Shown in pieces: positions 1 to 24,332 of a stretch of DNA of 64,000 bases. Below the pieces are notes generated by a model, which saw only the letters and a program-made list of their open reading frames with translations, did no database searches and had not been told where the DNA came from. How positions within the stretch are numbered: position 1 is the stretch's first letter; every line of letters starts with the position of its first letter. The DNA comes from Staphylococcus phage Machias, in sequence record MW349128.1. One strand, 5' to 3'. The translations under genes were made by a program, and so were the position numbers.

Positions 1-168
1 AAATATTTACTTTGGAAGTTTTCTTTTAAATAATAAAAACAAAAAAGATGATCCAATTTACTTGTTACAAGTGGATAGTAGTCTGGTTGATTTCAGTTTA
101 ATTGAAAATAAAAAATATAAAGAATTTGGACGTAATTTATTTAAATTAATTAAATAGGAGTGATATAA

Positions 169-447
169 ATGGATAAAGAAATCGAAGATTTAGCAGGAGG
201 AATAAATAATCTAGAAATTGACCTTAAAGGGATGAATTACAGATTATCTAATGATAAACAAGTTATTGATTTTGAAATAGAGAAAATTAATGGATATATT
301 AAATTTTTACATGAAGAAAATCAAAGCATCAAAAAAGAAAATATGTTGTTAAAAGAAGCAATAGTATCTATTTCTAAGCATACAGGATTTAATAATGATT
401 ATATAAATAAATTGTCTAACGAAATTATCAAAGAAAACTTTAAATAA
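169..447 (+). CDS. small coiled-coil protein; C-terminus ...NEIIKENFK resembles the tail of the 19.9-29.7 kb paralogue family
   Basis: ORF preceded by RBS aggag; heptad-like charged sequence; C-terminal ENFK tail. Confidence 0.5.
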   Translation: MDKEIEDLAGGINNLEIDLKGMNYRLSNDKQVIDFEIEKINGYIKFLHEENQSIKKENMLLKEAIVSISKHTGFNNDYINKLSNEIIKENFK

Positions 448-467
448 TAAAGAGATGTGATTTTATT

Positions 468-743
468 TTGAATAATGAAAAAAGTTTAATTAAGCGTATG
501 GAAGATTTAGAAGAACGTACTAGAATGAATGAAATTAAATTAAATACTATGAAAGATAATTATCATTATATAAATGACATTATAGGTACATTAATTAATA
601 GAATAGATAATTCTAATCAAACTAATGAAAAGAAATTGGATGAGGTAAGATTAGAATTAGTTCGTCTTTCTAACGAATTAAATTCACATTCTGAAGTAAC
701 TAAAAAGTATATAAAGAATTTTATCAGAGATAATCTTAAATAA
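468..743 (+). CDS. small coiled-coil protein (tail ...FIRDNLK)
   Basis: compact ORF in operon-like array; TTG start in the ORF track; no recognisable domain. Confidence 0.45.
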   Translation: MNNEKSLIKRMEDLEERTRMNEIKLNTMKDNYHYINDIIGTLINRIDNSNQTNEKKLDEVRLELVRLSNELNSHSEVTKKYIKNFIRDNLK

Positions 744-747
744 AGGA

Positions 748-1029
748 ATGAAGTGTATGAAAGCTATTAAAAGAATAATTGGTTCAGAAGAATTTATTAA
801 CACTGTAAAGAAAACTATAGCTAGAACTAAGAAAGCAGAAGAGAAATTTTATGATTTAAATAATAGAGTTGATAAAGCTGTATCTTTAGCTAGTAAAGTT
901 GTTGAAGATAATAAAGAAAAAGAAAGAAAAATTAAAGAACTAAAAGAAGCTTTATCTAAAGAGAAAATTAATAATAGAAGTATAAAATCCAGATATAATA
1001 GATTATTATATAAAAATGAGGGAAAATAA
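748..1029 (+). CDS. small basic coiled-coil protein
   Basis: ORF with RBS aaaggaatg; K/E-rich sequence. Confidence 0.45.
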   Translation: MKCMKAIKRIIGSEEFINTVKKTIARTKKAEEKFYDLNNRVDKAVSLASKVVEDNKEKERKIKELKEALSKEKINNRSIKSRYNRLLYKNEGK

Positions 1030-1031
1030 TT

Positions 1032-1259
1032 ATGAATCCAAATATTAATTTTAATGATAATGGAAAATCTATGGATGAACTTTATTCAAAGTTACAATTT
1101 TCATTTGCTAAACAAGTAGAAAAAGATATATTGGAAGATAATGAAAAAGATTCTCTAGAAAAAGAATTAAAAGAACTTAGAGAGCTTATTTTCGAAGTAG
1201 CTAAAAAATATGACGTTAAAGAAGTAAAAGATTATTTAGTTAGAAAAAATATGAAATAA
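1032..1259 (+). CDS. small acidic protein; C-terminus EVKDYLVRKNMK (tail-family-like)
   Basis: ORF with RBS gagggaaaataattatg; C-terminal YLVRKN motif. Confidence 0.5.
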   Translation: MNPNINFNDNGKSMDELYSKLQFSFAKQVEKDILEDNEKDSLEKELKELRELIFEVAKKYDVKEVKDYLVRKNMK

Positions 1260-1262
1260 ATA

Positions 1263-1294
1263 AGAGGTAATGACATTAATTTGTCATTACCTCA
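1263..1294. terminator. bidirectional rho-independent terminator hairpin (GAGGTAATGACA / TTAATTT loop / TGTCATTACCTC)
   Basis: perfect 12-bp inverted repeat between convergent genes; ATTAATTT-type loop. Confidence 0.7.
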
Positions 1295-1305
1295 ATTATA
1301 CTTCT

Positions 1306-3534
1306 TTAGTCATCATATTTATCTCTATATTCATAATAACTATCATATTGAACTTCTAAACCTGAGAAAGCTGAAATGAATCCCATATGCCCTTCCATAT
1401 TGATATTTTCAATATCTTTAATATCAACATCAGGTTCTCTATAATTAAAATCTTTATTTTTATCTATAAAAATTCTAATTCTATTTTCATTCTTTATAAT
1501 CTTAATATATTTATTATTAATATCTAAAGGTACATGATTAGTTACATATAGCTGTTTTTCTTTTTCATCTTGGAATATTTCTTTAGGTTTTCCAAATACT
1601 TTATCAATTTCATAGAAACCAGTTTTCATTACACGATCAGGATCATCCATCACATCTTTATCATCTAAATCAAAATAAGGTACATCCCAATTTTCTTGTT
1701 GAGAAGCTATCCACAACATATAACCTGAGTTAAGATTAGAATTATAATCAAATACAATACCTGCTCCACCAGTATTATTTTTATTAATAACTTTAAATGT
1801 CATAATATAATTTTTAGGGAATTTGAAATTTTGACTATATACATAGTTTAAAGAATCATCATCAAATTTAGTTGTTCCATCTTTAAAACTAATGTAACCA
1901 TAGTTTCCTAATGATTGTTTAGTAATTGATTTATTGTAAAATCCTGTATATGTCTGTGTATCAACTGGATAAGTTCCATAAGAACGTAAAGCAACTATCG
2001 TAGGATTAAAGAAGATTCCTGAACGACTCTCATCAAAGAAATACTGTGACCCATCTGGATTTTTTAATGAATAGTTGTATTCCAATTCTACATCATACCA
2101 ATCTTCTTTAGTCACTATAAATGTGTTATTAAATTCTTCATGACTAATTCCAGCTATTTCAAGTTCATCAAGACTAACTTGTATAATTTCATTTGGATCA
2201 ACTTCATTATCAAAATTAGTTAATTTAACTTCTATCTCCATTTTTTTAATATTCTTCATATTATACATCATATGCTTAAGATAAGATTTTTGACCTTGAG
2301 TATTATAATTTTTATTAGTTGAAGGGAATATGTTTTCAACTTTCTTAACTTTACCAGTATTAGAAGTTAATGTAATATCATAAACTAATTTAGCTGTTGG
2401 ATGATTATTATCTTTAAAATTAGTTGAATAACCTAAATTAAATGCAAAGAAATCATATTTAAGTAAACGCTTAATATTCATTCTAGGATTTTCATTTTCA
2501 TCATCTAAAGTTATCTTGACAAAAGAAGCTGAATCACCTTCTTCTTTATCTGATTTACTGAACATATCTCCTTTAACTTCATAAAGACCAGTTTCTTTAT
2601 TAAAACTTACCGAAGATAATCTAGTTGATTCTAAATTAGAATGCTGTACATCTTCATCATTAGCTTTTCTTAAATCAAATATAGCAGTTGGAGCTTTAAA
2701 TTGGTAATTTTCTGTAGCATTAATTATATTAAACCCTTTACTATCTGTTATATTTAATTTAGAAGTTCCGTTTTGTAATGGAGCAAATAAGTATTTTTCA
2801 CCAGGTTTGAAATACATCTTACCTTTAAATTTACGAGAGAAACCTTTCTTATAAAAGATATGAGGTAAAGTTTTTAAACCATCATTATTAAGTGTAAAAG
2901 GTTCAACTAATTCTTTATTATCTGTATCAGGTCTATAGAATTTGTGTTCATGAACTTCATATCTTTCTCTTAAATAGCGATCTGAAGTAATATCATTCAA
3001 TTTATCATCAAAGTCTAATTCAGGTACAAAAGGTATAATTTTAGGATTTCTGTATTTAGGTGTTACTCTGTCTGAATCTTCTTCAGTACTTTTAATCATA
3101 TGTTTATATATTGGTTTAGGATTAGTTTCAGATCCTAATACATCGTTTTCACTATTGATAATCTTATTTAAATCGTTAATTACAGTTTCTGTGAATACTT
3201 TAACAGTATCTGTATTAAATTGATCCACTGTCTGCATATCATTTACGAATAATAATAAATACCATAGATCTGTTGTTCCATATAATTCATTGGAAAGATA
3301 TTCAGGTTTATAATGATATGCTTTATCTAATTCATAATCTATCAAATCTGCCTTTAATACATTTTCATATTTCTTTAATAATGGAAAACCGAATACTGAT
3401 TGCTTTTCAAATATATACCATTCAGATATATTATTTAATAATAGTTTATTTGATTTGGAATATTGTATTTCTTCAGCCATTTCAGGAACATCATTCTTTC
3501 CCATATTCGAGTTCCCTACGTTACGTATAAGCAT
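1306..3534 (-). CDS. large hypothetical protein (742 aa), possibly virion structural
   Basis: long uninterrupted ORF; no motif I can name. Confidence 0.55.
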   Translation of the reverse strand: MLIRNVGNSNMGKNDVPEMAEEIQYSKSNKLLLNNISEWYIFEKQSVFGFPLLKKYENVLKADLIDYELDKAYHYKPEYLSNELYGTTDLWYLLLFVNDMQTVDQFNTDTVKVFTETVINDLNKIINSENDVLGSETNPKPIYKHMIKSTEEDSDRVTPKYRNPKIIPFVPELDFDDKLNDITSDRYLRERYEVHEHKFYRPDTDNKELVEPFTLNNDGLKTLPHIFYKKGFSRKFKGKMYFKPGEKYLFAPLQNGTSKLNITDSKGFNIINATENYQFKAPTAIFDLRKANDEDVQHSNLESTRLSSVSFNKETGLYEVKGDMFSKSDKEEGDSASFVKITLDDENENPRMNIKRLLKYDFFAFNLGYSTNFKDNNHPTAKLVYDITLTSNTGKVKKVENIFPSTNKNYNTQGQKSYLKHMMYNMKNIKKMEIEVKLTNFDNEVDPNEIIQVSLDELEIAGISHEEFNNTFIVTKEDWYDVELEYNYSLKNPDGSQYFFDESRSGIFFNPTIVALRSYGTYPVDTQTYTGFYNKSITKQSLGNYGYISFKDGTTKFDDDSLNYVYSQNFKFPKNYIMTFKVINKNNTGGAGIVFDYNSNLNSGYMLWIASQQENWDVPYFDLDDKDVMDDPDRVMKTGFYEIDKVFGKPKEIFQDEKEKQLYVTNHVPLDINNKYIKIIKNENRIRIFIDKNKDFNYREPDVDIKDIENINMEGHMGFISAFSGLEVQYDSYYEYRDKYDD

Positions 3535-3628
3535 TTAATTTCACTTCCGTTCATTTTATTGGTATAATAAATGGTTGTTAAAGCATTTATCAATATAGAT
3601 AAAAAATTAGAATTTTCAAATAATATTT

Positions 3629-3646
3629 TAAATATATATTATTTTA
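3629..3646 (+). promoter_or_regulatory. promoter-like motif TAAATATATATTATTTTA followed by leader hairpin 3648..3679
   Basis: near-identical copies of TAAATATATATTATAAAA upstream of at least 7 other genes in this window. Confidence 0.4.
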
Positions 3647-3720
3647 TTGAGAATGAGTTATTATTAGACTTAATTCTCAAATATAAAATAAAAATTTTAA
3701 TTAAGAGGAGAGATTTGGAT

Positions 3721-5268
3721 ATGTCAGTAACAAAATACAGTGATGTAAAATTAGTAGCAAAATTAAACTTTGAGGCGGATAACTTGGTGAATATCATCGG
3801 ACACGGAGGAATCGGTAAGACTCAATTATTCAAAGAAATTGCTAGAGAAGAAAATATGAACTTCATTACTATTGCAGCTAACAACTTAAAAGAAGGTGAG
3901 CTTTCAATGCCAATGCTTTCACCTAAAGATAATGAAGTTGTATATGCTCCAATGGATAAAATTAAAGAAGCAAATAGACTTTATGAAGCTTATAAAGAAT
4001 ATCAAGCTAATGGTGGAGTTCAATATTCTCAAAGAGATTTAGCTAATATGAAATTAGATGAACTTAAAGAAATTTATAAAGATTTATCTAAAGAAGATAA
4101 TCTAGTTGAATATTATGAAGATACTCAAGAAAACTATGTGAACAAAGTATTTAACAAAGCTAAAGTTAAAAATGTTAAATATACTCATGCAGAATTAAGA
4201 AATAAATCTGTACCAGAATTAGAAGAAATCTTTAAAGAACTTACTGGTAAAGAACTAAAAGATAAATTAGGTAAAGGTTATTATATTAGTAAAGTATTAG
4301 AATTAATTCCTAGACCTTATACACTTCTATTTGTTGATGAAATTGCTCGTACAGATCAACAAGTACAATCTGAACTTATGAACTTCTTATTAGAACGTCA
4401 AGTTAATGGATATCATTTACCAGACAATGTTAAAATTGCTCTAGCACAAAATCCAAGTTCTGATATGCCTGGTTTTGAAGATACAGATTATTCTTCAACA
4501 TCTATGGATAATGCAGTATCTTCTCGTTTACTTCATATTCATATGGAACCAGATATGACTAGTTTCGTACAATATGCAACTCAATATAAACCAGATTCTG
4601 AAAAACAAAATATTCATCCTTCTGTATTAGAATTTATTACTGAAAAAGAAAGTTATGAATATTTATTCAATCCTAATAAAGAGGCGAATGTTGACTTTAA
4701 CGATACTAACCCTCGTTCTTGGGAAATGTTAAGTAATCTTGTATACACTATTGAAGATAGTGATTTATTAAAAACAGGAAGTCCAGAAGAAAATAGACGT
4801 AATAAACAAAAAGCATTACAGATTTCTGCAGAGGGTAAAATTAATATGTCTTTAGCTAATAAATTTACTAAATTCTATATTGATAATCAAGCTAAGCTTC
4901 CAAGACCTTCTGATATTCTATTTGAATATGATAGAGGAGTAATGACACCAAGAAAAGAATTATTGAAACAGCACATTGAAGTTATTGAAGGTCAATCTAC
5001 AATTCGTCAATTGACATTGAAAACTGCAATTATTAACTATCTTAAAAATAATCCAGATTTAATTGATGAGAAAGTTATTCAAGTTGCAGTAGAAGCTTTA
5101 TTATTAGGTAAAACTGAAACTAATGCTACATCAGTAAGATTAATTAGTAGATTATCTGAATCAACAGAAGATACAGATCAAATTCTATATGATAAATTTA
5201 CTGATAATGATTTATATAGTGAAGAAGCATTTAAACTATATGAAAAAATGACAGGTTCTTTAGGATAA
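3721..5268 (+). CDS. AAA+ ATPase (MoxR/AAA_5-like)
   Basis: Walker A GHGGIGKT, Walker B LLFVDEIAR; strong RBS aagaggagag before ATG at 3721 (ORF track gives upstream alternative start 3571). Confidence 0.6.
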   Translation: MSVTKYSDVKLVAKLNFEADNLVNIIGHGGIGKTQLFKEIAREENMNFITIAANNLKEGELSMPMLSPKDNEVVYAPMDKIKEANRLYEAYKEYQANGGVQYSQRDLANMKLDELKEIYKDLSKEDNLVEYYEDTQENYVNKVFNKAKVKNVKYTHAELRNKSVPELEEIFKELTGKELKDKLGKGYYISKVLELIPRPYTLLFVDEIARTDQQVQSELMNFLLERQVNGYHLPDNVKIALAQNPSSDMPGFEDTDYSSTSMDNAVSSRLLHIHMEPDMTSFVQYATQYKPDSEKQNIHPSVLEFITEKESYEYLFNPNKEANVDFNDTNPRSWEMLSNLVYTIEDSDLLKTGSPEENRRNKQKALQISAEGKINMSLANKFTKFYIDNQAKLPRPSDILFEYDRGVMTPRKELLKQHIEVIEGQSTIRQLTLKTAIINYLKNNPDLIDEKVIQVAVEALLLGKTETNATSVRLISRLSESTEDTDQILYDKFTDNDLYSEEAFKLYEKMTGSLG

Positions 5269-5273
5269 TATAA

Positions 5274-5306
5274 TAAAGATAATGGAGATTAGGTTCTCCA
5301 TTATCT
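5274..5306. terminator. terminator hairpin (GATAATGGAGA / TTAGGT loop / TCTCCATTATC) plus T-run
   Basis: inverted repeat directly after the stop of the ATPase gene. Confidence 0.6.
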
Positions 5307-5337
5307 TATTTATTTTTTTATTTATAAATATTAGGAG

Positions 5338-7281
5338 ATGAATTGGATAATGGAAAAACGTACTATTAAAGTTATTAGAAGAGATATACTTGATGAAGTT
5401 CAAGATTCTATTAGAGAAGATAGAAGTTATGATAAAGAAAAATTAGTTAAACTTGGTAAAGAATTAATGGAGAATAGTATATTTGTATTATATACTTCAG
5501 ATGTAGATATCTATGGAGTTATGTTAATGACTGTAGAAAAGATTATTGATTTAGAAGTACCTGAAGCTACATTTTCAGTATATGATGAAGATAAAGGATA
5601 TAGAATTGGTATTAATCCAATACTATTAGCTACTACAGTTGATAAAGATGAGGAAATTATTTCTATGTTCCTACATGAAGCTATGCATGTTGCTCATGGA
5701 CATTTGATTGAATTTAGAATGTTAAAGAATAAGGAAGATCAACAATTGAAAATGATAAGTCACTTAGGTATGGATTTATCTATATTTGAAATTGAAGAAG
5801 ACTTCCAATTAGGTAAACGTGAAGCTAATACAAGTAAAAAAGTATTACCTGAAATTGCACCTAATGTAGATAAGATTGAAAAGTACATTCAAGATAAATT
5901 TAATAAGACAGATTTTAAATTAAATCACAAAGATGGTTCTCATTATTATATTAAAGAATTAGTAGATGTATATAGAGAAAATGAAGAAGAAGATTTGTTT
6001 GAATCTATGGGACAATCTATTCAAGATATGATTCAAGAAGCTTCTGAGAAACAAAATGAAAGAAGTGAAGAATCATTAGAACAAGAAAATGAACAGTTGA
6101 AAGATATGTTGGATAAATTAAAAGATATAGAAGAAAAGAATGATTTATCAAAACAACTTTCCAATAATAAAATTGATGATTCAGATATTGATGACTTTGA
6201 AAAACAAGCTCAAGATTATATGAATCAGTTAGATGATTTGAATGGTAATAATGAAAAAGAAAGTAATGATACTAAAAGTCAAAAAGAAATTGAAGAAAAG
6301 ATGAATGATTTATTAGATTCTATGAAAGATAATAGTAATAATAATGATTTTGATCAATCTAATAATTCTGATTTATCTGACAAAATTCAAGAAATGAAAT
6401 CAAACTTATTAAATCAGATGATTCAAAATAGTATGCAGCAAGGTTCTGAAGGTATGCAAGGTGAAGATAGTGGAATGAGCAATGGTCAAAATATTAGTGA
6501 AATGGGAAGTAATATGACTATGTCTTCTTCATTAGAAGGTAATAAAAAATATGAAGATAGATTTGATGTTAATCCATTACAAAATGATGCTACTGAAGAA
6601 AGAATGAAAGATCAACTTCATGAATTATTAACTAACGCTGTTAGCAATAGTAGAGGTGATACTCCAGCTCATATTAAAGAACAAATTGAAATACTGAAAC
6701 GTAAACCAAAAATTAAATGGCAAGATTTCTTAAAATCTAAAGTTGGTAAGAAACGTGCAGACACTAGAAAAACTATTTTAAGACGTAATAGAAGACAACC
6801 TTATCGTAATGATGTTAGAGGAACTTTACCTGGTAAGAAATTAGGAAAAGTGTTTGCAGCAATTGATACTTCAGGTTCAATGAGTAAAACTGAAATTGAA
6901 GAAATTATTGCTGAATTATATTATATCAGTAAAGATATGAAGATTGATTTAGTTTTATTATTCTTCTCTACAGATGTAGAAGAAGTTGTAGAAGTAACTA
7001 GACCTAACCAATTTAATAATTATGTAATGGGTCGAGGAGGAACTTATTTTAGTTCTGTATTTGATTATTTAAATGATGATAATAATAAAAATAAATACAA
7101 TGTAACAAAAGATGACATTTTACTATTCTTCTCAGATGGTTTTGGAGAGCCGGAAGTTGATTATGGTGTATTAAAAGATATTATTTGGGTTATCACTGAA
7201 GATGAGAAAAACTTATCAGTTAATGATCCAAAAGGTAAAGTACTAAAATTAGAAATAGATAATAATCGTAATAATTTCTAA
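5338..7281 (+). CDS. VWA-domain protein with N-terminal HExxH metallopeptidase-like motif (DUF2201-like partner of a MoxR ATPase)
   Basis: HEAMHVAHGH motif; MIDAS-like AIDTSGSMS; long acidic/Q-rich linker; start may be the ATG at 5350. Confidence 0.6.
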   Translation: MNWIMEKRTIKVIRRDILDEVQDSIREDRSYDKEKLVKLGKELMENSIFVLYTSDVDIYGVMLMTVEKIIDLEVPEATFSVYDEDKGYRIGINPILLATTVDKDEEIISMFLHEAMHVAHGHLIEFRMLKNKEDQQLKMISHLGMDLSIFEIEEDFQLGKREANTSKKVLPEIAPNVDKIEKYIQDKFNKTDFKLNHKDGSHYYIKELVDVYRENEEEDLFESMGQSIQDMIQEASEKQNERSEESLEQENEQLKDMLDKLKDIEEKNDLSKQLSNNKIDDSDIDDFEKQAQDYMNQLDDLNGNNEKESNDTKSQKEIEEKMNDLLDSMKDNSNNNDFDQSNNSDLSDKIQEMKSNLLNQMIQNSMQQGSEGMQGEDSGMSNGQNISEMGSNMTMSSSLEGNKKYEDRFDVNPLQNDATEERMKDQLHELLTNAVSNSRGDTPAHIKEQIEILKRKPKIKWQDFLKSKVGKKRADTRKTILRRNRRQPYRNDVRGTLPGKKLGKVFAAIDTSGSMSKTEIEEIIAELYYISKDMKIDLVLLFFSTDVEEVVEVTRPNQFNNYVMGRGGTYFSSVFDYLNDDNNKNKYNVTKDDILLFFSDGFGEPEVDYGVLKDIIWVITEDEKNLSVNDPKGKVLKLEIDNNRNNF

Positions 7282-7289
7282 TATTAATT

Positions 7290-7330
7290 ATGTGGTAATG
7301 GGGATTAATTTCTCTATTACCACATATTAT
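7290..7330. terminator. terminator hairpin (ATGTGGTAAT ... ATTAATTT ... ATTACCACAT)
   Basis: inverted repeat after the stop at 7281; loop contains ATTAATTT. Confidence 0.55.
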
Positions 7331-7371
7331 ATTTTATTTTTTATATATTGAAAGGAATGAATATTTAGGAT

Positions 7372-9594
7372 ATGGAAAATTTTGTAAAAGATGAGATAGA
7401 AAAATTATTTAATGTAACTATATATAATAAAGAATTTTGTGATTTAGATGTTATGTACAATAGAAAAGATACGAATACTAGAACCTTTTTAACTGATAAT
7501 TTGAAAAGTAGAATAGAAGAAAATTTAATTAATCTCATTAGATACTCGTATGGTGATGTCAAACAAAAAGTAATGGTTAGAGATAATGAATATAGAAAAA
7601 ATTATAAAGATTTTTTAATGAACCATCCTGATATTAATACAGAAGGTTTATTGGATGAAAATGAAGAAGGTATTTCTATTTTTAGAGATCCGTATGGTGA
7701 TAACAGCACAATAAGAGATTCAGATATTATAAATAATGTAAATAGACGTGAGGATATTTTTACAAATAAAGGTGAACGACTAGATAATGGTACTAAATTA
7801 AAAGATACTTTTGTACTTAGAAATATGTCTATAAATTATAATAATGTAATTACGGATAGATTAGAAACTGATATAAAATTCTTCCAATCTGATTCCTTTA
7901 TTGATGAAAATAATAAAATATCTGAATTATCTTTTGAAAATATATTATGTATTGATGAGACAGTATCTATTAGGGAAAGAAGAAAATGGTATAAATCAAT
8001 AGAAAAAGAATCCATTCCAAATATGAATATCATATATAAATATGTACCAGAGGTAATGAAATTTATAGCTACAGGTATATATAAAACTACTAACTTTAAA
8101 CCAGATATATACCACTTTATTGGATTAGAATATTTATTGTTTGTAGGTGCATATAGAGGATATAACAGAAACAGTTATTATTCTCTTGCAAATCTAATGA
8201 TGTTATTAAATAATTTAATTAGAGTTAATGATATCAATAATATTATTGATGATCAAAAATTAAAATATTCTGATTTTAGAAAAAGATTGGATAGAAATGT
8301 AATTGAAATTAAAAAAGATAAAAATATATCATTAGAAGGATTCATGATACAAAGAAATGATTTAAATAAAAGAATTTTAAGTGAATTTAATGATGTTCTT
8401 AATAAATTAAATAAAAATTTAGATATTAATGAGAATATAAAAATTGGTTTTAATAATACCTTAGATAAATCAATTGAAGAAGTTATTAAAGATAATAATT
8501 CAGGTATTTCTAGTTATACAATTGATAAAGTTAAAGAAAAATACAATAATATATTATCTAGTATTATTGATGAAATTAAAAACTCTATAGGTTATATAAA
8601 TCAAGAAAATATAATTAATTATTTCCTTGATGAAAAAGCTAATGAAAAAGTAGAACAATTAGATGATTTTGAAATTAGAATTTTTAATAAATATAATTCT
8701 TTAACGAATCTAAGCAATGAAGATAAATTTTATATTAAAGATTTAAATGATGAAAATCTTATAAGAAAGTTAATTGAAGTTATTAAAAAATATAATAAAA
8801 AAATAGATATTGACGCAACTAATATTGATTTCAGTAAATTAAAAGATTCAACATATGATTTAATTAGTTCTCTTGAAAATGATAATTTTATGAAAATAAC
8901 GATGTCTCCTTCTTTAGATAATATAGATTATTTCACTAAAATGTGTATTAAAGATATAAATGAATTTGATAGAGATTATTTAATTAAAAATTACAAAAAG
9001 ATTTTTGAAGAAATAGACAGTAAGAAAAATGATCATAAAAATATAATAAGTGTTAGTCTAGACAATTTTATAATTAACTTTAATAAATTTACTGGTTTTG
9101 GATCGAATAATATATTAACTGAAAGTGTTAGAATTATTAATAATGATCTAAGTATTGAGGATGTATCATTAATATTCTTAATTTCAATTAATGGATTTAA
9201 ACAAGAAAATGAAGATTTAGAAATTACAAGTACAGATAATATGATTTCTTCATTTAGAGAGGAAGTAGATTATAAAGGACAAACAACTTCATTGAATGCA
9301 ATTAAAAATATATTTATAGACGGTAATTATGAGTCTATTTCAAATATACTTTTACTATTATTTGGAAATATTAATTTCAACCAACCGTATAATAATTTTT
9401 ATTTAGAAAAGCTTAATACAAGTTCAAAATATTTCTTAAATTCAGAATTTGCTTACAAAGATAATGAAGGTAAAATTAAAAGTGGAAGTTTCAATAATTT
9501 CATTAAAGATAATAAAGATAATTTAAATTCTGAAGTATTGAATAAATTTAGAAAATACAGAACTAAATACCTAGCAAGAAATATATTTTTATAA
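7372..9594 (+). CDS. hypothetical protein (740 aa, N/K-rich)
   Basis: long ORF with RBS gaaaggaatg; no recognisable motif. Confidence 0.55.
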   Translation: MENFVKDEIEKLFNVTIYNKEFCDLDVMYNRKDTNTRTFLTDNLKSRIEENLINLIRYSYGDVKQKVMVRDNEYRKNYKDFLMNHPDINTEGLLDENEEGISIFRDPYGDNSTIRDSDIINNVNRREDIFTNKGERLDNGTKLKDTFVLRNMSINYNNVITDRLETDIKFFQSDSFIDENNKISELSFENILCIDETVSIRERRKWYKSIEKESIPNMNIIYKYVPEVMKFIATGIYKTTNFKPDIYHFIGLEYLLFVGAYRGYNRNSYYSLANLMMLLNNLIRVNDINNIIDDQKLKYSDFRKRLDRNVIEIKKDKNISLEGFMIQRNDLNKRILSEFNDVLNKLNKNLDINENIKIGFNNTLDKSIEEVIKDNNSGISSYTIDKVKEKYNNILSSIIDEIKNSIGYINQENIINYFLDEKANEKVEQLDDFEIRIFNKYNSLTNLSNEDKFYIKDLNDENLIRKLIEVIKKYNKKIDIDATNIDFSKLKDSTYDLISSLENDNFMKITMSPSLDNIDYFTKMCIKDINEFDRDYLIKNYKKIFEEIDSKKNDHKNIISVSLDNFIINFNKFTGFGSNNILTESVRIINNDLSIEDVSLIFLISINGFKQENEDLEITSTDNMISSFREEVDYKGQTTSLNAIKNIFIDGNYESISNILLLLFGNINFNQPYNNFYLEKLNTSSKYFLNSEFAYKDNEGKIKSGSFNNFIKDNKDNLNSEVLNKFRKYRTKYLARNIFL

Positions 9595-9692: not shown

Positions 9693-10937
9693 ATGGTAGA
9701 AGATTTATATGAAAATGATATATTTATCTTTGATTTAAAAAATAATGATTTAAATGAAGATGATAAATATATGGTTAATAAGTTTATTACAAATTTGTTC
9801 TATAGATATTCACTTGCAGAAGGTATAGATAATTTGAATATTTTAAATTCAAAAGAAGTAAAAATAAATGATAATATTAAGATTATCAAAATAAGAAATT
9901 TTAATAATTTAAAAAATGGTGACATATTAGCTTCATTAATATTAAATTATTACCATACTGAAAATTTAGATTTAAAAGAAATATTAAAGGATAATTTAAT
10001 TAAAGAAATAAATATGGAAGATAATTATTATATGAATAAAGATATAAATGTATTAATTAAATTTATGTATATCAGTAAATTTACTTATGATAATGATTTA
10101 AATGAAATTAATATTGATATAGATGAATATTTCTCTAACGAAACAGATATTGCATATATAGTTAAATTAATAAAAGATGAAGATATGAACTTCTTTAAAG
10201 AGAACACACATATAATGAGTTTAAAGTATATTAATGAAATAGGTATAACTCAATTATTTAATAAAATATTTTATACTAAATCTTTTAATAAAGATAAAGA
10301 AGAAAAATTTATTAAAACCGTAATTGATTATATTTATACTGGAACTAAAAATAAAACGTACAGTAATAAAATATTAATTATGAATGAGTTGTATGGTGTA
10401 TTTGGAAGAAAATATAAAAAACCTAGTAACGATATATTAAATTATATTGAAAATACAGTGGATAATATCATTAAGAATAAAGTTAAAGATAGTAAATATA
10501 AAGAATTTGATAAAAAGTATTTAATTGAAAGAATAAGAATTTTTAATAGAAATATAAAAGATATAGGTGTTTATAATAGAATAGATAATTATTTAAAATA
10601 TGATAAAGAAACTTACTTAGGTGATAATGATGATATAGTTAAAGCATTCTTTTTCAATAATTATCAATATGATAGTATTTTTCGTTTATGTGTAATATTT
10701 AAAAATAAATTACCTGAAAAGGAAAATGTTGAAGAATTCTTTATTAAATTATTAGATTTAATTAATAAAAATACAACTACAACAGAGAAGAAAAAACTTA
10801 TGAAAGATATTTTAAACCCTAGTTTTAATAATATTGATAAATTTAAATATAACGATCCAAGCTTTTTAGTTAGTAAATCTAAAGGAGAGCTTAAGAGAAT
10901 AATCATGCACAATACAGTTAAGAAAACATTTATTTAA
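9693..10937 (+). CDS. hypothetical protein (414 aa)
   Basis: ORF with RBS taaggagatg. Confidence 0.55.
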   Translation: MVEDLYENDIFIFDLKNNDLNEDDKYMVNKFITNLFYRYSLAEGIDNLNILNSKEVKINDNIKIIKIRNFNNLKNGDILASLILNYYHTENLDLKEILKDNLIKEINMEDNYYMNKDINVLIKFMYISKFTYDNDLNEINIDIDEYFSNETDIAYIVKLIKDEDMNFFKENTHIMSLKYINEIGITQLFNKIFYTKSFNKDKEEKFIKTVIDYIYTGTKNKTYSNKILIMNELYGVFGRKYKKPSNDILNYIENTVDNIIKNKVKDSKYKEFDKKYLIERIRIFNRNIKDIGVYNRIDNYLKYDKETYLGDNDDIVKAFFFNNYQYDSIFRLCVIFKNKLPEKENVEEFFIKLLDLINKNTTTTEKKKLMKDILNPSFNNIDKFKYNDPSFLVSKSKGELKRIIMHNTVKKTFI

Positions 10938-14720: not shown

Positions 14721-15224
14721 ATGAGATACTTTTTATTTAAACCTAAAAAGTTTCAAGAACTATTTGAAACTGAAAAGAAATTATCATCTGTCTTTGAATA
14801 TTATAGAGATATGAAAAAAGATATTGTATTTAAAGTTGATGAAAATGATGATATTTTTATGATGTTATATAATATTTTAAGTGATGAAATATTACCTTTT
14901 ATAAGATGTAAAGTATACAATAAAAAAGATGGAGAAATACTAAAAGCATCAGAATTATATGTCCCTATTAGTTTGGATATTCATAAAGAAATAAATATAA
15001 ATAAAAATAGTATAGAGTATGATTCTAACATGCCTTATAAACATGGTTTAATTGAATGTCCATCTATTGACGAAGATAATACTAACAATTATCTTCGTTT
15101 AAATTTTCAATATAATGACAAAGATGATTATTTTTATATTTACTTAAATGATATTTATGCTATTTTTGAAGAGATAGATAAAACAGAATTTATGAAAATA
15201 GAAACTAAAAAGAATTTTATGTAG
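14721..15224 (+). CDS. hypothetical protein (167 aa)
   Basis: ORF with RBS aaaggaggg. Confidence 0.5.
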   Translation: MRYFLFKPKKFQELFETEKKLSSVFEYYRDMKKDIVFKVDENDDIFMMLYNILSDEILPFIRCKVYNKKDGEILKASELYVPISLDIHKEININKNSIEYDSNMPYKHGLIECPSIDEDNTNNYLRLNFQYNDKDDYFYIYLNDIYAIFEEIDKTEFMKIETKKNFM

Positions 15225-18957: not shown

Positions 18958-19152
18958 AATAAAATGGTCGCTGCTTAAAGTGATTTAAGTTGATAAACAT
19001 TGTTAATTGCTGAAATACTATTAATAAAGTTAATCAGCATCAATTAAATATAATTGTTCAACGACTAAATGCAATGATACTATTTAATAGTATATAATAT
19101 AGTCTAATTTATATAATACTTATATAAATATAATAAATGCGAAAATTTCTTG
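18958..19152 (+). mobile_element. group I intron C (compact, no ORF)
   Basis: first 31 nt identical to intron A (ATGGTCGCTGCTTAAAGTRATTTAAGTTGAT, IGS GGTCG); cores TTAATTGCTGAAA / AATCAGCATC / GTTCAACGACTAAATGC / ATATAGTCTA; 3' end approximate. Confidence 0.65.
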
Positions 19153-19341
19153 AACGTAGCACCTGCTAAAATTAAAATATTAACTACTGTTGATACTATT
19201 CCAGAAATAATTTTAGATGATATAGTATTAAAAGATTACCCTAAAGTAGTAAGAGAGTATCCTGTTGATGAAGATATTTTCTTAGATACTGCAATCATAC
19301 ACAATTCATATGCTCAAGCACTTGGTGCAGATTTTGATGGC
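19153..19341 (+). CDS. RNAP beta-prime N-half, exon 2 (ends ...AQALGADFDG = first part of the NADFDGD catalytic motif)
   Basis: in-frame segment ending GADFDG immediately before intron D; start boundary uncertain (ORF track 19150..19365 reads through into the intron). Confidence 0.5.
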
Positions 19342-19491
19342 AAAATTTTATATTACCATCATTAAATAATATTAATTGCTGGAAAATCTAATAAGATAAT
19401 CAGCATCAACTTAATAAAAGTTGTTCAACGACTAAATATATTACTAAAGAAGATATAGTCTAATTATATGTAAATACATGTATATAAAATG
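19342..19491 (+). mobile_element. group I intron D (compact, no ORF)
   Basis: ATTAATTGCTGGAAAA / AATCAGCATCAAC / GTTCAACGACTAAATAT / GATATAGTCTAATT; omega-G at 19491. Confidence 0.65.
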
Positions 19492-19635
19492 GATATGATT
19501 TCAATACGCTCTTTATGGTCTGTAGAAGCAAATAAAGAAGCTGATAAACTTATTAATAAGAAAACTAATTACTTAAACTACACAGGAAATAGTATACGTG
19601 GAGTTGGTAATGAGAGTAAGTTTGTATGCTCTCAA
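19492..19635 (+). CDS. RNAP beta-prime N-half, exon 3 (DMISIRSLWSVEANKEADKLI...)
   Basis: aligns to E. coli [21 protein letters not shown] directly after NADFDG; the 3' end could lie anywhere 19606..19635. Confidence 0.5.
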
Positions 19636-19760
19636 TAAATTTCATTAATTGCTGGAAAAACAAAATTAATCAGCATCAACTTAATAAAAGTTGTTCAACG
19701 ACTAAATATGAAAATGATTTAAATATCATAAGATATAGTCTAATTATCATAAATATATGG
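19636..19760 (+). mobile_element. group I intron E (compact, no ORF)
   Basis: ATTAATTGCTGGAAAAA / AATCAGCATCAAC / GTTCAACGACTAAATATG / GATATAGTCTAATT, nearly identical to intron D; boundaries approximate. Confidence 0.6.
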
Positions 19761-19781
19761 TACAAGCTTTATATTCTTTAA
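19761..19781 (+). CDS. RNAP beta-prime N-half, tiny terminal exon (YKLYIL-stop ~ E. coli LGLYYMT), ends the N-terminal beta-prime polypeptide
   Basis: in-frame continuation after the omega-G at 19760; stop at 19779..19781; the beta-prime C-half is encoded separately at 39794. Confidence 0.3.
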   Translation, partial: YKLYIL

Positions 19782-19912: not shown

Positions 19913-20545
19913 GTGATTATTTTGAATATTAATGATTATAGATATTTTAAAATGGATGATGGATTAATGCAAATCCATAAAGATAAAATTAAAGGAAATA
20001 TTACAGACTTGATAGGAATGTTGCATATTGATGTAGATCGTATCAAGGAAGATAATTTTCTAAATTTAGGTTTAGAAAGATTAAATATAAATATTTCTTT
20101 TGATAATCTTGAATTGGTATGGGAAAATATAAAATTTCAATTTAGTTTGTCGATAATTATTTTTGCTGAAAAACAAGAAAATGAATTAAATGAATATACA
20201 AGTAGTATAAGATTTTTTTATGATAATGAAGAAAGACAAATGGAGAGTGATAGATTTAAAAAACTTATATTAAATGTTGATTATATAAAAAATTTTGTAA
20301 GTTTAATGGTAGATGATAAAGAAATCGATGATTTAACAATTTCTATTTTTAATTATGATAAAAATGATTTTCATTTAAAATGTTCTGATATTGTAATTAG
20401 ATACTTATACGATTTAGAAAGAAGATTTAATGATAAAGGTTATGATTTGTTATTAAATGGTAAGAATATAAATGAATTAGAAGACAATGAAGAAAAAGAT
20501 ATTGATAAGATTAAGAAATATTTAGTGAAAGAAAATTTTAAATAA
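19913..20545 (+). CDS. tail-family paralogue 1 (C-terminus ...DIDKIKKYLVKENFK)
   Basis: RBS aaaggagaag; GTG/TTG start region; conserved C-terminal tail. Confidence 0.6.
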   Translation: MIILNINDYRYFKMDDGLMQIHKDKIKGNITDLIGMLHIDVDRIKEDNFLNLGLERLNINISFDNLELVWENIKFQFSLSIIIFAEKQENELNEYTSSIRFFYDNEERQMESDRFKKLILNVDYIKNFVSLMVDDKEIDDLTISIFNYDKNDFHLKCSDIVIRYLYDLERRFNDKGYDLLLNGKNINELEDNEEKDIDKIKKYLVKENFK

Positions 20546-20556
20546 GGAATGATAAA

Positions 20557-21219
20557 ATGGATAATATAAAAGTATACAATAATACAATAACTAATCAAAA
20601 ATTTTCTTTAGATAATAATGAAATTGATAATGGTAGATTCTTATATAAAGCTATGGAACAAGTAACAAATAAAAATCAAAAGAATATTGAATTTCTTGAT
20701 AGTAGTTTTCTAGTAAATAATATGCAGATGAATTTCCATTTTTATATTTACTCGGATTTTATTATAAACTTTAAAAATCTAACTGGAAAAGATAAAAATA
20801 TATTAATTAATGGTAATAATTCTGATATAACAAGGGCTTCATTTGTCTGTTTTTATGACAATATTGATAATGAAAGAATATTCCAAATTTATCTAAAAAC
20901 AAAGAAATCTAAAAAGATAAGAAATATATTAAAAGATTATGAAAGTGAGAAATATTTAATTGAAAGAATAATGTTAATTGGTGAAGATATATCTTTTAAA
21001 GTAGATTTTAAAAAAGAATATTTAGATAGTATAGAAGATAATGAATATAAGTCTTTAGACAGTTTGATTCACTATATATTAAAAGATATGTTAATTAATA
21101 TAGATGGAGAATTTATACCTTTTATGGAATTTATTAAAAATTATCTTTATTCTATATCTAAAGAAATTACTGATGAAAAAGAAATTAAGAAATATTTAAT
21201 TAAAGAAAATTTTAAATAA
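20557..21219 (+). CDS. tail-family paralogue 2 (...ITDEKEIKKYLIKENFK)
   Basis: RBS taaggaatg; conserved tail. Confidence 0.65.
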   Translation: MDNIKVYNNTITNQKFSLDNNEIDNGRFLYKAMEQVTNKNQKNIEFLDSSFLVNNMQMNFHFYIYSDFIINFKNLTGKDKNILINGNNSDITRASFVCFYDNIDNERIFQIYLKTKKSKKIRNILKDYESEKYLIERIMLIGEDISFKVDFKKEYLDSIEDNEYKSLDSLIHYILKDMLINIDGEFIPFMEFIKNYLYSISKEITDEKEIKKYLIKENFK

Positions 21220-21236
21220 TGGAGTTGAAATAGATA

Positions 21237-21722
21237 ATGATATATTACAAAAATAAAGTAAATGGTGAAATATATGAAGTTAATAATATTCATAGAAAAG
21301 ATGATGCTTTTTATTATGTGTTTGGTAATGAATTTAAAAAAGAGAATTCGTCTTTTTATAGATCTGATGGTAAAAAGATTGACCTATATGATGAAGATGT
21401 AGGAAGTATAAAATTGGAGTTTTTCTTAATTTACGGTTTTATTAATCTTCATTTAACTACGCACATTTCTTGGGATCTTAATAGTATTCCTTTTATACCT
21501 AAAAATATAGATTTAACAAACCAAAATCTTGTCATATCAGACTCTTCAATTGATCTTTATTATTTATTTTATAAAAGATTATGTTATGCGATAGATGTAA
21601 ATATGACACATTATAATATTCCATTAGAAAAATTTAATTTTGATAATGAAGATATATTTGAAATAATTTCAGAAGATTGCAAAGAAGTAAAAGATTTTAA
21701 AGTTAGAAATCATTTTAAATAA
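21237..21722 (+). CDS. tail-family paralogue 3, divergent tail (...KEVKDFKVRNHFK)
   Basis: RBS tggagttg; divergent but recognisable tail. Confidence 0.55.
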   Translation: MIYYKNKVNGEIYEVNNIHRKDDAFYYVFGNEFKKENSSFYRSDGKKIDLYDEDVGSIKLEFFLIYGFINLHLTTHISWDLNSIPFIPKNIDLTNQNLVISDSSIDLYYLFYKRLCYAIDVNMTHYNIPLEKFNFDNEDIFEIISEDCKEVKDFKVRNHFK

Positions 21723-21735
21723 GGAGGAATTATTA

Positions 21736-22407
21736 ATGGAAGGTTATGATTTTGATTTATATATAACAAATAGGGATTTGAAAGATAATCATTTTATGAA
21801 AATAAATAAAGATAGGTATAATAATGATAGAGACTATATTGAAAGAGTAAATACTATCAATATGATAAAATTATTAACTCATGTCTCTTATCCTGATTAT
21901 GAAAATATTATATCATTTAATGTTGACTGTAAACTGAAATTAAGAGGTTTTAATGATTATAAAGATATTAAGTTATCTTATTATCAAGAAGTAGAATCAA
22001 AATCAACTATTATTGCCGGAATATCATTTGTAAAAACTGAATTAAATTTAATAAGTAAAGAGAAAGATAATAGATATCTAACAGATGAATTATTGTATGA
22101 GTATGATATGATGAAAATAAATACAAGTATAAATAATAAACTTAATACAATTAAATTAACTAAAAATGAAGCCACTGCTTTGAATAGTATTAGTCAGAGA
22201 AGTCCTAAATTTCATTTATCACTTGATAAGTTTAGAAGAGAATTCTTAAAGATGATAACTGAATTAAATAAGTATGAAGATATACAGTTTTTAATTGATG
22301 GAACGTATTATAGTTTAGAAGATATCAATTTATACAATAAAGATTTATTTAGAACTGCTACTGATAAGGAATTCAAGAATTATTTAGTTAAAGAAGGATT
22401 TAGATAA
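21736..22407 (+). CDS. tail-family paralogue 4 (...ATDKEFKNYLVKEGFR)
   Basis: RBS taaggagg; conserved tail. Confidence 0.65.
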   Translation: MEGYDFDLYITNRDLKDNHFMKINKDRYNNDRDYIERVNTINMIKLLTHVSYPDYENIISFNVDCKLKLRGFNDYKDIKLSYYQEVESKSTIIAGISFVKTELNLISKEKDNRYLTDELLYEYDMMKINTSINNKLNTIKLTKNEATALNSISQRSPKFHLSLDKFRREFLKMITELNKYEDIQFLIDGTYYSLEDINLYNKDLFRTATDKEFKNYLVKEGFR

Positions 22408-22417
22408 AAAAGTGTAT

Positions 22418-22436
22418 TAAATATATATTATAAAAA
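22418..22436 (+). promoter_or_regulatory. promoter-like motif TAAATATATATTATAAAAA inside the paralogue array
   Basis: consensus copy abutting ORF 22444 with no SD (real start probably 22504, which has RBS gaggag). Confidence 0.4.
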
Positions 22437-22503
22437 TGAGATAATGAATCTAACAGAGTTCATTATCTCTAATAATATCTTAAATAGAGGAGATGAAGTT
22501 AAT

Positions 22504-23145
22504 ATGGATAATAATGAATATATAAATAATCATGAATTCTATAAAGTTGATAGTAGAGGACAAATAATAGTAACTAATAAAGATGTTACTAAAGATGAAT
22601 TAAATGTTAATCTATTCAAAGAATTATTTAATTTTAATAATGTTAAGAAAAAAATAGATGAAATTGGTTTATTTTCATTAAAAACCAATAGTATTTTGAT
22701 AAGGGACAAAAATACTTATTACAGAACTAAGAATTCTTATATAGATATAACAGACATGTGCAATAATAATTATTTTGAATTATATTTTGTATTTTCATTA
22801 TTAGATAAAAATGAAAATGGATGCAAGAATATAGGACCTTTTAAAAGTTCAATTAGCAGTCAAGTATTTTCATATACAGCTAAAATTCAAATTAAAAATA
22901 GAGACAATTTGGAACATGAATTAATTTCAAATATAATTGATCTCTTTAGTAGTAAAAAAGAAACAAATTTAATAATATATACAGTTGATTCAGTAGAGGA
23001 TGATATTGATTTTATGACAAGTCGAGAATTTAAGAAAGATTTAATTTTAGAAGAATATACACTCGATGAAATATACAAGGTCTTAGAAAAATTAGAAAGT
23101 GAAAAAGAAATTAAACAATACTTAGTTAAAGAAAATTTTAAATAG
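22504..23145 (+). CDS. tail-family paralogue 5 (...ESEKEIKQYLVKENFK); the ORF track starts it at 22444
   Basis: internal ATG with RBS agaggagatg; conserved tail. Confidence 0.6.
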   Translation: MDNNEYINNHEFYKVDSRGQIIVTNKDVTKDELNVNLFKELFNFNNVKKKIDEIGLFSLKTNSILIRDKNTYYRTKNSYIDITDMCNNNYFELYFVFSLLDKNENGCKNIGPFKSSISSQVFSYTAKIQIKNRDNLEHELISNIIDLFSSKKETNLIIYTVDSVEDDIDFMTSREFKKDLILEEYTLDEIYKVLEKLESEKEIKQYLVKENFK

Positions 23146-23160
23146 AGAGGAGTGAAATAT

Positions 23161-23697
23161 ATGGATTTAAAAAATTCTAGATTTTTAAGAAAAAGTAAAC
23201 ATCATAAAATAATACAATTTAAGCATAATAATATAAATAATGATCATGTATTAGGATTATCTTTATTAATATTATTTACTAATGTTTATATAAGAAGTGA
23301 TTCTGATGATATTAGTATTTATGATTATTTATCAAATGTATACATGAAAATAGATGGTTATTTAAAAGGTCCTTTATCAATAACGCATGGAGACAATAAT
23401 AGCGTATTAGTATATTCTAGAATTAGATTACCATTAGATCTATTTAAATTAAGAGAATACAATGTTAATACTAGATTATACACATATATTCTTCTTGATA
23501 ATTATGAAACTGATAAAGGAGATTTAATTCAATCCGTTGTTAATGCTTCTGATTATATTATTAAGAATGATAGAATTAAATTAAAAATAATTATTGATGG
23601 AATTGAAAAAGATATTGGTGGTATATTAAAATACTTTGATGAAGTTAAAGATGAAAAAGAAATTAAGAAATATTTAGTAGAAAAAAATTTTAAATAA
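23161..23697 (+). CDS. tail-family paralogue 6 (...VKDEKEIKKYLVEKNFK); the ORF track starts it at 23152 (GTG)
   Basis: RBS agagaggag; conserved tail. Confidence 0.6.
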   Translation: MDLKNSRFLRKSKHHKIIQFKHNNINNDHVLGLSLLILFTNVYIRSDSDDISIYDYLSNVYMKIDGYLKGPLSITHGDNNSVLVYSRIRLPLDLFKLREYNVNTRLYTYILLDNYETDKGDLIQSVVNASDYIIKNDRIKLKIIIDGIEKDIGGILKYFDEVKDEKEIKKYLVEKNFK

Positions 23698-23714
23698 TGA
23701 AAGAGGTAATTAAA

Positions 23715-24332
23715 ATGAATGAATCATTATATGTATCTGATATTTTAGAATATAGTTTCATTGATAAAAAGAGTCTTTCTAGAAAAGAATTATTTGATAT
23801 ATCTTTTGATCAATTTTTCAAACATCCAGGCTGTACTGGTTATGATGTTAAAAATGTTCGTCTTTGGATAAATTCTATGGATGGTCTAATTCTAAGATTC
23901 GGTTATGATATGAATAATCTTTTTTATGTAAATGAATTTGATCTTTTCGTAGATAAAAATGATGGTCAATATGAATTTAGTTTTGTATTAGATATTCCAG
24001 CGTTTTCAAAAAAAGAAGTTCACTGTGAAATAGGACCTTTTGTATCTAGAGAAGGTGAAATTGAATTTTATTTTAATGATACAGAAATATATACTGAAGG
24101 AAAAACTTTACTAGACAAAGCTAAAGAATACTTGACTAGAGATATATTTAATAAAAATGGTTCTGCATTTAATGTCTTTTCATTAAATAACGAAGACAAT
24201 ATTCATGATTACAAAATAAGTAAAGAGGATATAAAAGAAATCTATAATTTAAATATTATAGATGAACTATTTAAAGAAGTAACGGATGAAAAGGAAATTA
24301 AAAATTACTTAGTCAAGAAAGGTTTTGAATAA
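23715..24332 (+). CDS. tail-family paralogue 7 (...VTDEKEIKNYLVKKGFE); the ORF track starts it at 23697
   Basis: RBS aagaggtaat before ATG 23715; conserved tail. Confidence 0.6.
   Translation: MNESLYVSDILEYSFIDKKSLSRKELFDISFDQFFKHPGCTGYDVKNVRLWINSMDGLILRFGYDMNNLFYVNEFDLFVDKNDGQYEFSFVLDIPAFSKKEVHCEIGPFVSREGEIEFYFNDTEIYTEGKTLLDKAKEYLTRDIFNKNGSAFNVFSLNNEDNIHDYKISKEDIKEIYNLNIIDELFKEVTDEKEIKNYLVKKGFE

Follow-up and report, generated by a model that had tools for sequence, protein, structure and literature searches.

A short C-terminal peptide unites a dispersed gene family in Staphylococcus phage Machias and related jumbo phages

A stretch of 64,000 nucleotides from Staphylococcus phage Machias (sequence record MW349128.1), hereafter the window, begins with four small open reading frames (ORF1 to ORF4), which the first-pass annotation had described as a second cluster of coiled-coil genes sharing the C-terminal tail of an array at 19.9-29.7 kb. 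It was found that this tail stands at the extreme C-terminus of 13 window proteins, and that ORF4 certainly belongs to the family so defined. The tail family is a viral multigene family whose members have a short terminal peptide in common, and it is absent from Pfam and PHROGs. The genes concerned are the following:

169-447, + strand: ORF1, 92 amino acids; probably a degenerate short-form tail member
468-743, + strand: ORF2, 91 amino acids, TTG start; helical, well-conserved small protein
748-1029, + strand: ORF3, 93 amino acids; conserved charged helical protein, not a tail-family member
1032-1259, + strand: ORF4, 75 amino acids; clear tail-family member
19913-25011, + strand: first sub-array, 8 consecutive tail-bearing genes of 161-233 amino acids
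26532-29734, + strand: second sub-array, 4 tail-bearing genes of 245-286 amino acids

The four small ORFs are present with the endings originally quoted (...NEIIKENFK, ...KNFIRDNLK, ...YKNEGK and ...EVKDYLVRKNMK), and the array was confirmed with 12 genes that carry ...EITDEKEIKKYLVKENFK-like tails.

Position matrices were built from the 12 array tails and every gene C-terminus was scored with them. Two nulls served for comparison: every internal k-mer in the proteins of the phage itself, and random peptides of matched composition. Positions 1-8000 of the window (G+C content about 23% over the 64 kb) matched nine Staphylococcus jumbo phages of the S6 / PALS_2 / MarsHill group by megablast, the closest being AH12 (96%), and the census was carried out on the assembled complete genome of this phage (96% identical, 296 gene C-termini). 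The scores were bimodal. While 24 of the 296 C-termini reached 23.6-40.3 bits, the next one reached 12.1 bits and the best of about 77,000 internal 16-mers 12.7 bits; the membership threshold over the last 16 residues was accordingly about 12.7 bits, with all members at 23.6 bits or above. The 24 carriers occupy about eight loci, all on one strand. Besides an array of 13 genes and the locus of ORF4, there are singletons or triplets near 19, 100-104, 125-126, 131-134 and 163 kb. The proposal that the tail family extends beyond one array and is dispersed through the genome was thus borne out by the genome-wide profile count, with a clear gap in the scores.

ORF4, which is 100% identical to Machias gp101, carries the tail in its last 16 codons (1209-1256, YDVKEVKDYLVRKNMK). 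On the array-built matrix it scored 22.0 bits over 12 residues, a value inside the leave-one-out range of the array itself (12.7-27.3 bits) and above the best of 16,391 internal 12-mers (11.7 bits). On the iterated 16-residue matrix the score was 31.7 bits, exceeding all of the more than 77,000 internal 16-mers. Comparison by hhalign with a tail profile that did not include ORF4 resulted in an end-to-end alignment (92% probability, E = 6.7e-7), and the ORF4 orthologue P0011 was recovered by the tail profile among 1.84 billion proteins. Among orthologues, tail identity was 0.88-0.94 and body identity 0.76-0.81. The C-terminal 30 residues are near-invariant across 10 orthologues, and an N-terminal segment is also conserved, with I5, F7, N8, D9 and G11 invariant. 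The AlphaFold2 model of ORF4, with a predicted local distance difference test score (pLDDT) of 65, displayed a long helix at residues 14-59 and, after an interruption at Tyr60-Asp61, a short, separate helix at 62-74, which is exactly the tail.

The module spans about 16-21 residues and reads (F-x-E-I)-T-D-E-K-E-I-K-x-Y-L-V-K-x-N-F-K-COOH. Among 59 distinct tails the position frequencies were D(-15) 63%, K(-13) 80%, E(-12) 76%, K(-10) 86%, V(-6) 73%, N/G(-3) 81% and F(-2) 92%, with F(-20) x E I T as further consensus positions ahead of D(-15). The last residue is variable (K/S/R/E/V/I), and the Phe lies at a fixed distance from the free C-terminus in 25 of the 26 clusters into which the carrier bodies fall. 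A Schellman-type C-cap consists of Gly or Asn followed by a hydrophobic residue. The position frequencies look like an N-capped amphipathic helix of about three turns with a Schellman-type C-cap, and such a cap would account for the alternation of N and G at -3. In the AlphaFold2 model of an array member the body forms an alpha/beta domain (predicted template modelling score, pTM, 0.63), both conserved ends fall below a pLDDT of 50 and the tail is unpacked on the body.

Chance at the given amino-acid composition, which had been named at the outset as the competing account, was not sufficient to explain the tail: neither null reached the scores of the members. S6/MarsHill-type phages are relatives of the Bacillus phages AR9 and PBS1, and two multisubunit RNA polymerases (RNAPs) are encoded (PMC10299810). 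AR9, similarly AT-rich and with a K/E/N-rich proteome, has no family member; none of its C-termini exceeded 2.6 bits and no enrichment of Phe at -2 was detected, showing that the tail is not a composition effect. Terminal Lys was enriched in AR9 as well as in AH12 and is therefore generic to these AT-rich phages. At tail positions with the same residue in paralogues the codon was shared in 69.3% of cases, against 68.3% expected from genome codon usage, and the DNA past the stop codon is not conserved among tail genes, the ribosome-binding site excepted. The constraint therefore acts on the peptide and not on the DNA; a regulatory or recombination DNA site was ruled out by the codon test.

The HMMER profile of the 13 window tails yielded 12 matches at E <= 0.001 in 1.84 billion representative proteins. 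All of them came from Staphylococcus jumbo phages and ended at the last residue of the protein; judged by this search, the tail family is specific to this phage clade. Scans of ORF1-4, the neighbouring baseplate gene and three array members against PHROGs and Pfam revealed nothing significant for the tail-bearing proteins. When a tail alignment of 44 residues was run against 5.8 billion proteins by word-index search, a tool suited to longer queries, 68 candidates were returned and none was significant. The family is not mentioned in the MarsHill/Madawaska/Machias and DC4 genome papers; the SA1 paper was used for its proteomics alone.

Around the members a zone of weaker endings was observed. 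AH12 has about five further genes with such "twilight" tails, and Phe occurs at -2 in 58 of all its genes against 14.9 expected (p = 7e-19), an excess that persists among non-members (35 against 13.7 expected). One possible diverged member lies in the window:

14721-15224, + strand: 167 amino acids, ends ...EEIDKTEFMKIETKKNFM; 8.6 bits, p = 2.6e-5 against internal 16-mers; AH12 orthologue 10.6 bits

Besides this ending, ...TVKKTFI and ...KYLARNIFL occur among the genes at 9693-10937 and 7372-9594. The twilight endings and the excess of Phe at -2 suggest a wider degenerate class ending in hydrophobic-K-x-x-F-x.

Within AH12 (L003) a second type of tail, ...[ST]EKEYKNxx[VI]KE[NT]FK, was noticed at 100062-102090, 104259-104711 and 124812-126669. 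In it Tyr replaces Ile at -11 and there is no Tyr at -8, and it is borne by small genes of the promoter-dense 98-135 kb region, outside the window. A 218-residue tail-bearing gene of AH12 (L001, 19086-19742) has no counterpart at 11.7-12.3 kb of the window, where tblastn matched its tail only, to other members. Even at 96% identity, therefore, two phages differ by the gain or loss of dispersed members.

The view that all four small ORFs share similar tails stood in part: the match is clear in ORF4 and confined to the last six residues in ORF1, but it is not significant in ORF2 and missing in ORF3. The agreement of ORF1 with the family is limited to the terminal hexapeptide IKENFK (427-444). 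ORF1 is the sole non-member gene that fits the hexapeptide pattern [IV][EKNR][DEKN][GHN]F[EKRS]-COOH, whose residue classes were taken from the 12 array tails alone (P = 0.002 in the window, 0.009 in AH12). Its full 16-mer scored -2.1 bits, which is within noise and fails the 16-residue threshold, and comparison with the tails by hhalign gave E = 1.9e-3. The orthologues all retain ...NFK, although that of SA1, ...IIDNNFK, fails the hexapeptide pattern at -5, and the body is fast-evolving (54-92% identity among relatives). An extra gene of 63 amino acids, ORF5x, follows ORF4 in three relatives and has no copy in the window or in AH12. Its ending is ...ITEIKVDLAKNMR, a tail one residue shorter than that of ORF4, and it is located as follows:

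MarsHill (L007), 2790-2981: ORF5x, gp098
SA1 (L008), 2784-2975: ORF5x
S6 (L010), 2793-2984: ORF5x

ORF5x is paralogous to both ORF1 (E = 7.6e-6) and ORF4 (E = 2.6e-4) by hhalign. Because it matches both, the three genes appear to form a paralogous sub-group with progressively eroded tails, and ORF1 is probably a degenerate member of the family.

The ending of ORF2, ...IRDNLK, is similar to the tail but has Leu where the family has Phe. It misses the hexapeptide pattern at the Phe position only, as does the terminal hexapeptide of ORF4, VRKNMK. The values for ORF2 (p = 0.006-0.015 before correction for about 64 C-termini, 0.8 bits, hhalign E = 0.11) are not separable from chance, and its membership is suggestive only. 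No tail match was found for ORF3 (p = 0.04-0.27, -11.4 bits, hhalign E = 0.2), which also failed the hexapeptide pattern; the protein is 90-96% identical among relatives. Its true start is probably the ATG at 757, downstream of the mechanical ORF start at 748, as the orthologues begin there. A relaxed pattern, [VIL][KR][EDKN][NG][FLM][KRS]$, picks out ORF1 and ORF2 (0.022 expected). It was discarded and not relied on, since it had been widened after the two endings were seen; the pattern fixed beforehand supports ORF1 only. A coiled coil would be expected to show heptad periodicity across 4-5 heptads or more of a helical stretch, and the coiled-coil label fared unevenly in a heptad test, which takes the fraction of shuffles reaching the observed power of the 3.5-residue hydrophobic periodicity. 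The periodicity was significant in ORF3 (0.002) and marginal in ORF2 (0.042), but not in ORF1 (0.104) or ORF4 (0.440).

In order to compare the carriers apart from their ends, the tails were trimmed from 64 proteins pooled from five phages, which gave the 26 body clusters. None of the 325 cluster pairs reached 80% hhalign probability; some weak links were seen at 68-74%. Homologous bodies are 22-87% identical between related phages, and over 28 homologue pairs tail identity was 0.70 against 0.50 for the body (p = 1.3e-4). The carriers are soluble, with no transmembrane-like segments, and their bodies are mostly acidic. Those of the second sub-array are structurally related, deeply diverged paralogues (template modelling score, TM, 0.55-0.60; 16-25% identity; 68% probability between clusters 0 and 5). 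The array itself is a variable region among related phages, with a megablast coverage of 31-69% against 86-100% for positions 1-8000 of the window. It holds 9 to 14 member genes, and the tail is kept in every copy. The equivalent of window 17.8-32.5 kb in AR9 (L015, 112348-123163) has only five small genes between the virion RNAP beta-prime gene and SbcC; the array of 12-14 genes at that place in the Staphylococcus phages is a clade-specific expansion.

Early transcription was approached with a 25-nucleotide matrix built from the 33 annotated early promoters of AR9, used by its virion RNAP (consensus AAATATATATTATA). In AH12 the early-promoter-like sites numbered 30 on the main coding strand and 5 on the opposite one, and genes bearing the tail were enriched within 3 kb downstream of such sites (17 of 24 against 90 of 249, p = 0.001). 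A cruder test with the bare octamer TATATTAT had given no significant promoter association (p = 0.12) and was superseded by the matrix. The sites of the window are listed below.

3624, 9598, 19861, 22413, 39726 and 45516, + strand: strong early-promoter-like sites
26449, 15278, 13564 and 63459: weaker early-promoter-like sites

Those at 19861 and 22413, for the first sub-array, and the weaker one at 26449, for the second, stand directly ahead of array genes, and no strong site was found on the minus strand of the window with the matrix. The sites probably mark early transcription units of this phage. The SA1 virion list obtained by liquid chromatography-tandem mass spectrometry comprises 52 proteins (PMC9096886, Table S2); none of 14 SA1 proteins, nine from the array and five from the small cluster, is among those detected in that table.

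The reading to which we lean, at a level still short of confidence, is that the tail acts as a common docking or assembly helix which joins many diverse, fast-evolving, mainly early proteins to one partner. The tail would fold as a short amphipathic helix, in which T/S-D forms the N-cap, EKEIKxYLVK about three turns, and N/G followed by F the Schellman-type C-cap, and would dock many different carriers onto one shared partner, either a host hub or a phage-encoded hub. The variable bodies would provide target specificity and the constant tail the connection. ORF4 would be the minimal version, with one long helix between a conserved segment at the N-terminus and the tail.

Several observations weigh against the docking helix. 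The docking function is inferred from a sequence pattern, and ORF4 has Met at -2, where all other body clusters have Phe. No early-promoter-like site was found for the ORF1-4 operon with the 25-nucleotide matrix, and the RecD-like gene that precedes it is reported as late in SA1 (PMC9414953). The timing of this operon may therefore differ from that of the array, and the tail family may not form a single temporal class. Moreover, an N-terminal Y-[YF] motif occurs in 13 of the 24 members and in 46 of the 272 non-members (p = 1e-4). The segment has the form Y-[YF]-x-x-K...G/D...hydrophobic, with examples in the window at 28122 (MEYNNYYRYKLDGKILHF), 21237 (MIYYKNKVNGEIYEV) and 28874 (MNKNKDYYLYKLEDKMYTV). 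A Foldseek search of BFVD with the array-member model returned same-clade proteins only and linked it to three other array proteins (16-25% identity, TM 0.55-0.60); against the PDB the search was uninformative (best E = 0.36, TM about 0.1). The shared N-terminal motif and the BFVD links suggest that many carriers are probably very old paralogues with constant ends and a diverging middle. Shared ends and alike bodies fit common descent as well as they fit a portable tag, and the tail is not demonstrably a freely shuffled module. Finally, both AlphaFold2 models were built on shallow alignments and are of low to moderate confidence, which makes the unpacked tail weak evidence.

The main rival, which we consider somewhat unlikely, is a deeply diverged multigene family. 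All carriers would descend from one ancestral gene, and the tail and the N-terminal Y-[YF] hairpin-like segment would be the structurally most constrained parts of a common fold, with no separate addressing or docking role. The tandem arrays with their copy-number variation agree with it, as do the enrichment of [YF][YF] near the N-terminus, the Foldseek and weak hhalign links (68-74%) and the paralogy of ORF1, ORF5x and ORF4. However, ORF4 with its 75 residues and one long helix, and its relatives of 63-92 residues, cannot share an alpha/beta body of 160-290 residues; no cluster pair out of 325 reached 80% probability; and the conserved ends are the least confidently packed parts of the single array model. 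The tail is also markedly more conserved than the rest, and a fixed distance from Phe to the C-terminus would be unneeded in a mere core element. Less likely again, to the point of being doubtful, is that the tail serves as the address tag of an undescribed protein-sorting or assembly system in jumbo phages that have no nucleus, with ORF4, ORF5x and ORF1 as minimal adaptors or competitors. The products of about 8% of the phage genes, mostly early and fast-evolving, would then be gathered by one capped C-terminal helix on a single hub, which could be a host machine rewired by the phage or an assembly or compartment built by it. Import cargo of a phage nucleus was set aside, as PALS_2 and PBS1 are cited as phages with multisubunit RNAPs and no chimallin homologue (PMC10299810).

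An improbable alternative is a C-terminal degron, by which mostly early proteins would be marked for timed breakdown by a host or phage AAA+ protease. In its favour, the tail is always terminal and keeps a constant spacing from the free carboxylate, and the carriers are enriched in early transcription units and absent from the SA1 virion list (PMC9096886). The tail, however, is highly charged, has helix-capping features and ends in a variable residue. The C-terminal degrons known from bacteria, such as ...LAA, are short, unstructured peptides of non-polar character. It is very improbable that the tail is a capsid-targeting or packaging signal that loads diverse proteins into the head for injection. 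The overall pattern does resemble the internal-protein locus of T4, in which polymorphic, dissimilar proteins share one short terminal peptide. Against this, the 14 SA1 proteins are missing from Table S2 of PMC9096886, the genes lie behind early and not late promoters, and the signal is C-terminal with no cleavage context of the prohead-protease type. Hardly credible for the family as a whole is that no protein feature exists, and that the endings are chance K/E/N/F-rich sequences or a conserved DNA element (a recombination, cassette-boundary or regulatory site) at gene 3' ends. K, N, E and I are indeed abundant in the proteome, the generic enrichment of terminal Lys extends to AR9, and the endings of ORF2 and ORF3 are compatible with chance. 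Nevertheless, no internal k-mer or composition-matched peptide reaches the scores of ORF4 or of the 24 members. AR9 stops at 2.6 bits with no enrichment of Phe at -2, in AH12 that residue is far above expectation (58 against 14.9, p = 7e-19), codon identity equals its expectation (0.693 and 0.683) and the downstream DNA is unconserved. Chance or a DNA element is thus refuted for ORF4 and the array; ORF3 is best read in this way, and for ORF2 the reading is viable.

Known systems offer partial parallels to the tail. The capsid targeting sequence (CTS) of phage T4, present on IPI, IPII, IPIII and Alt, is N-terminal, about 10 residues long and removed by the prohead protease, and its carriers are found in the virion. 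As in this T-even internal-protein locus, where the peptide is an address tag, dissimilar carriers that vary between relatives share one short conserved terminal peptide. In contrast, the tail described here is C-terminal, measures 16-21 residues and has no sequence similarity to the CTS, and its carriers lie behind early promoters and are not in the SA1 virion list. A capsid targeting sequence of the T4 type is therefore disfavoured, given the C-terminal motif and the count of 0 of 14 SA1 proteins among the 52 virion proteins listed. In poxviruses, the C-terminal PRANC or F-box-like motif of ankyrin-repeat proteins connects every member to one cellular machine. These proteins are likewise a fast-evolving family with a variable body and a constant short C-terminal element, but they belong to a different domain of life, there is no homology and no Pfam match, and the phage bodies are not repeats. 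The ClpX-binding tail of the bacterial adaptor SspB is also a short peptide at the extreme C-terminus, and tails of this type flexibly tether a cargo-binding protein to a hub. The phage tail appears helical and capped, not extended; to our knowledge, Firmicutes lack SspB. About 35 zinc-ribbon copies in Bacillus phage G represent a lineage-specific expansion in a jumbo phage (Iyer et al. 2021, PMC7824862). That case resembles the present one as a large, clade-restricted set of small jumbo-phage genes annotated with no function; there, however, a whole domain is repeated, whereas recognisable sharing in the present family is confined to the last 16-21 residues and, partly, a short segment at the N-terminus. 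The T4 CTS, the PRANC/F-box-like motif and adaptor tethers are by analogy the closest functional counterparts; none is homologous.

Two known motifs were rejected as identities of the tail. The spacing of the first helix and Gly-hydrophobic turn of the two-helix SAP/HeH/Rho_N motifs (E-L-R-x-x-L-x-x-x-G-L), which we take to match that of E-I-K-x-Y-L-x-K-x-[N/G]-F, served as a lead only, and no Pfam match to SAP, HeH, LEM or Rho_N was obtained at E up to 0.1 with ORF1-4 and three array members. The second helix of SAP/HeH cannot exist in the tail, because the protein ends one residue after the turn, and the SAP-like spacing may reflect only generic helix capping. The PIP box Qxx[LIM]xx[FY][FY] and the bacterial clamp motif QL[SD]LF were dismissed as well. 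The tail lacks a conserved Gln and has Leu (66%) or Lys (25%) next after Tyr/Phe(-8), and its best-conserved residues, V-6, K-5, N/G-3 and F-2, fall outside any PIP-like register.

The genes around ORF1-4 are arranged alike in the related phages. A RecD-like helicase operon precedes ORF1-4, whose order is the same in AH12, MarsHill, S6, SA1 and LY01, and a terminator lies beyond ORF4:

1264-1293, both orientations: bidirectional intrinsic terminator with a 12-bp stem (2 found against 0.0 expected)

This terminator closes both the ORF1-4 operon and a convergent baseplate-wedge gene (1306-3534, minus strand), and the MarsHill record has a terminator annotated at the equivalent place. Upstream of the array, short ORFs at 19150-19781 ending in ...NYLNYTGNSIRGVGNESKFVCSQ resemble the end of a split, intron-containing virion RNAP beta-prime gene. 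The gene for that subunit precedes the array in SA1 and in MarsHill, where it is gp113, joined from 3 pieces and with a homing endonuclease. The 8-gene and 4-gene sub-arrays are separated by three tail-less genes at 25058-26451 (261 residues and very acidic, 52 residues and 136 residues) that are kept in all relatives. The second gene of the second sub-array (27265-28122) probably starts at the ATG at 27313, just past the preceding stop; its homologue P0002 (269 amino acids) begins MKNNTKYF.

Phages of the S6/MarsHill/PALS2 type are being considered for use against staphylococci, and no function has been assigned to about 80% of their genes. One recognisable tail groups some 24-30 genes per genome, annotated with no function, into a single class. 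This class is early-biased, non-virion, fast-evolving and clade-specific, as would be expected of factors for host takeover or counter-defence. Should the tail prove to be a docking helix, a single pull-down with a 20-residue peptide could name the shared hub, and the tail would be usable as a portable handle to recruit proteins to that hub. Even if it is merely a constrained structural element, the tail offers a practical marker with which the most variable parts of these genomes can be annotated and compared.

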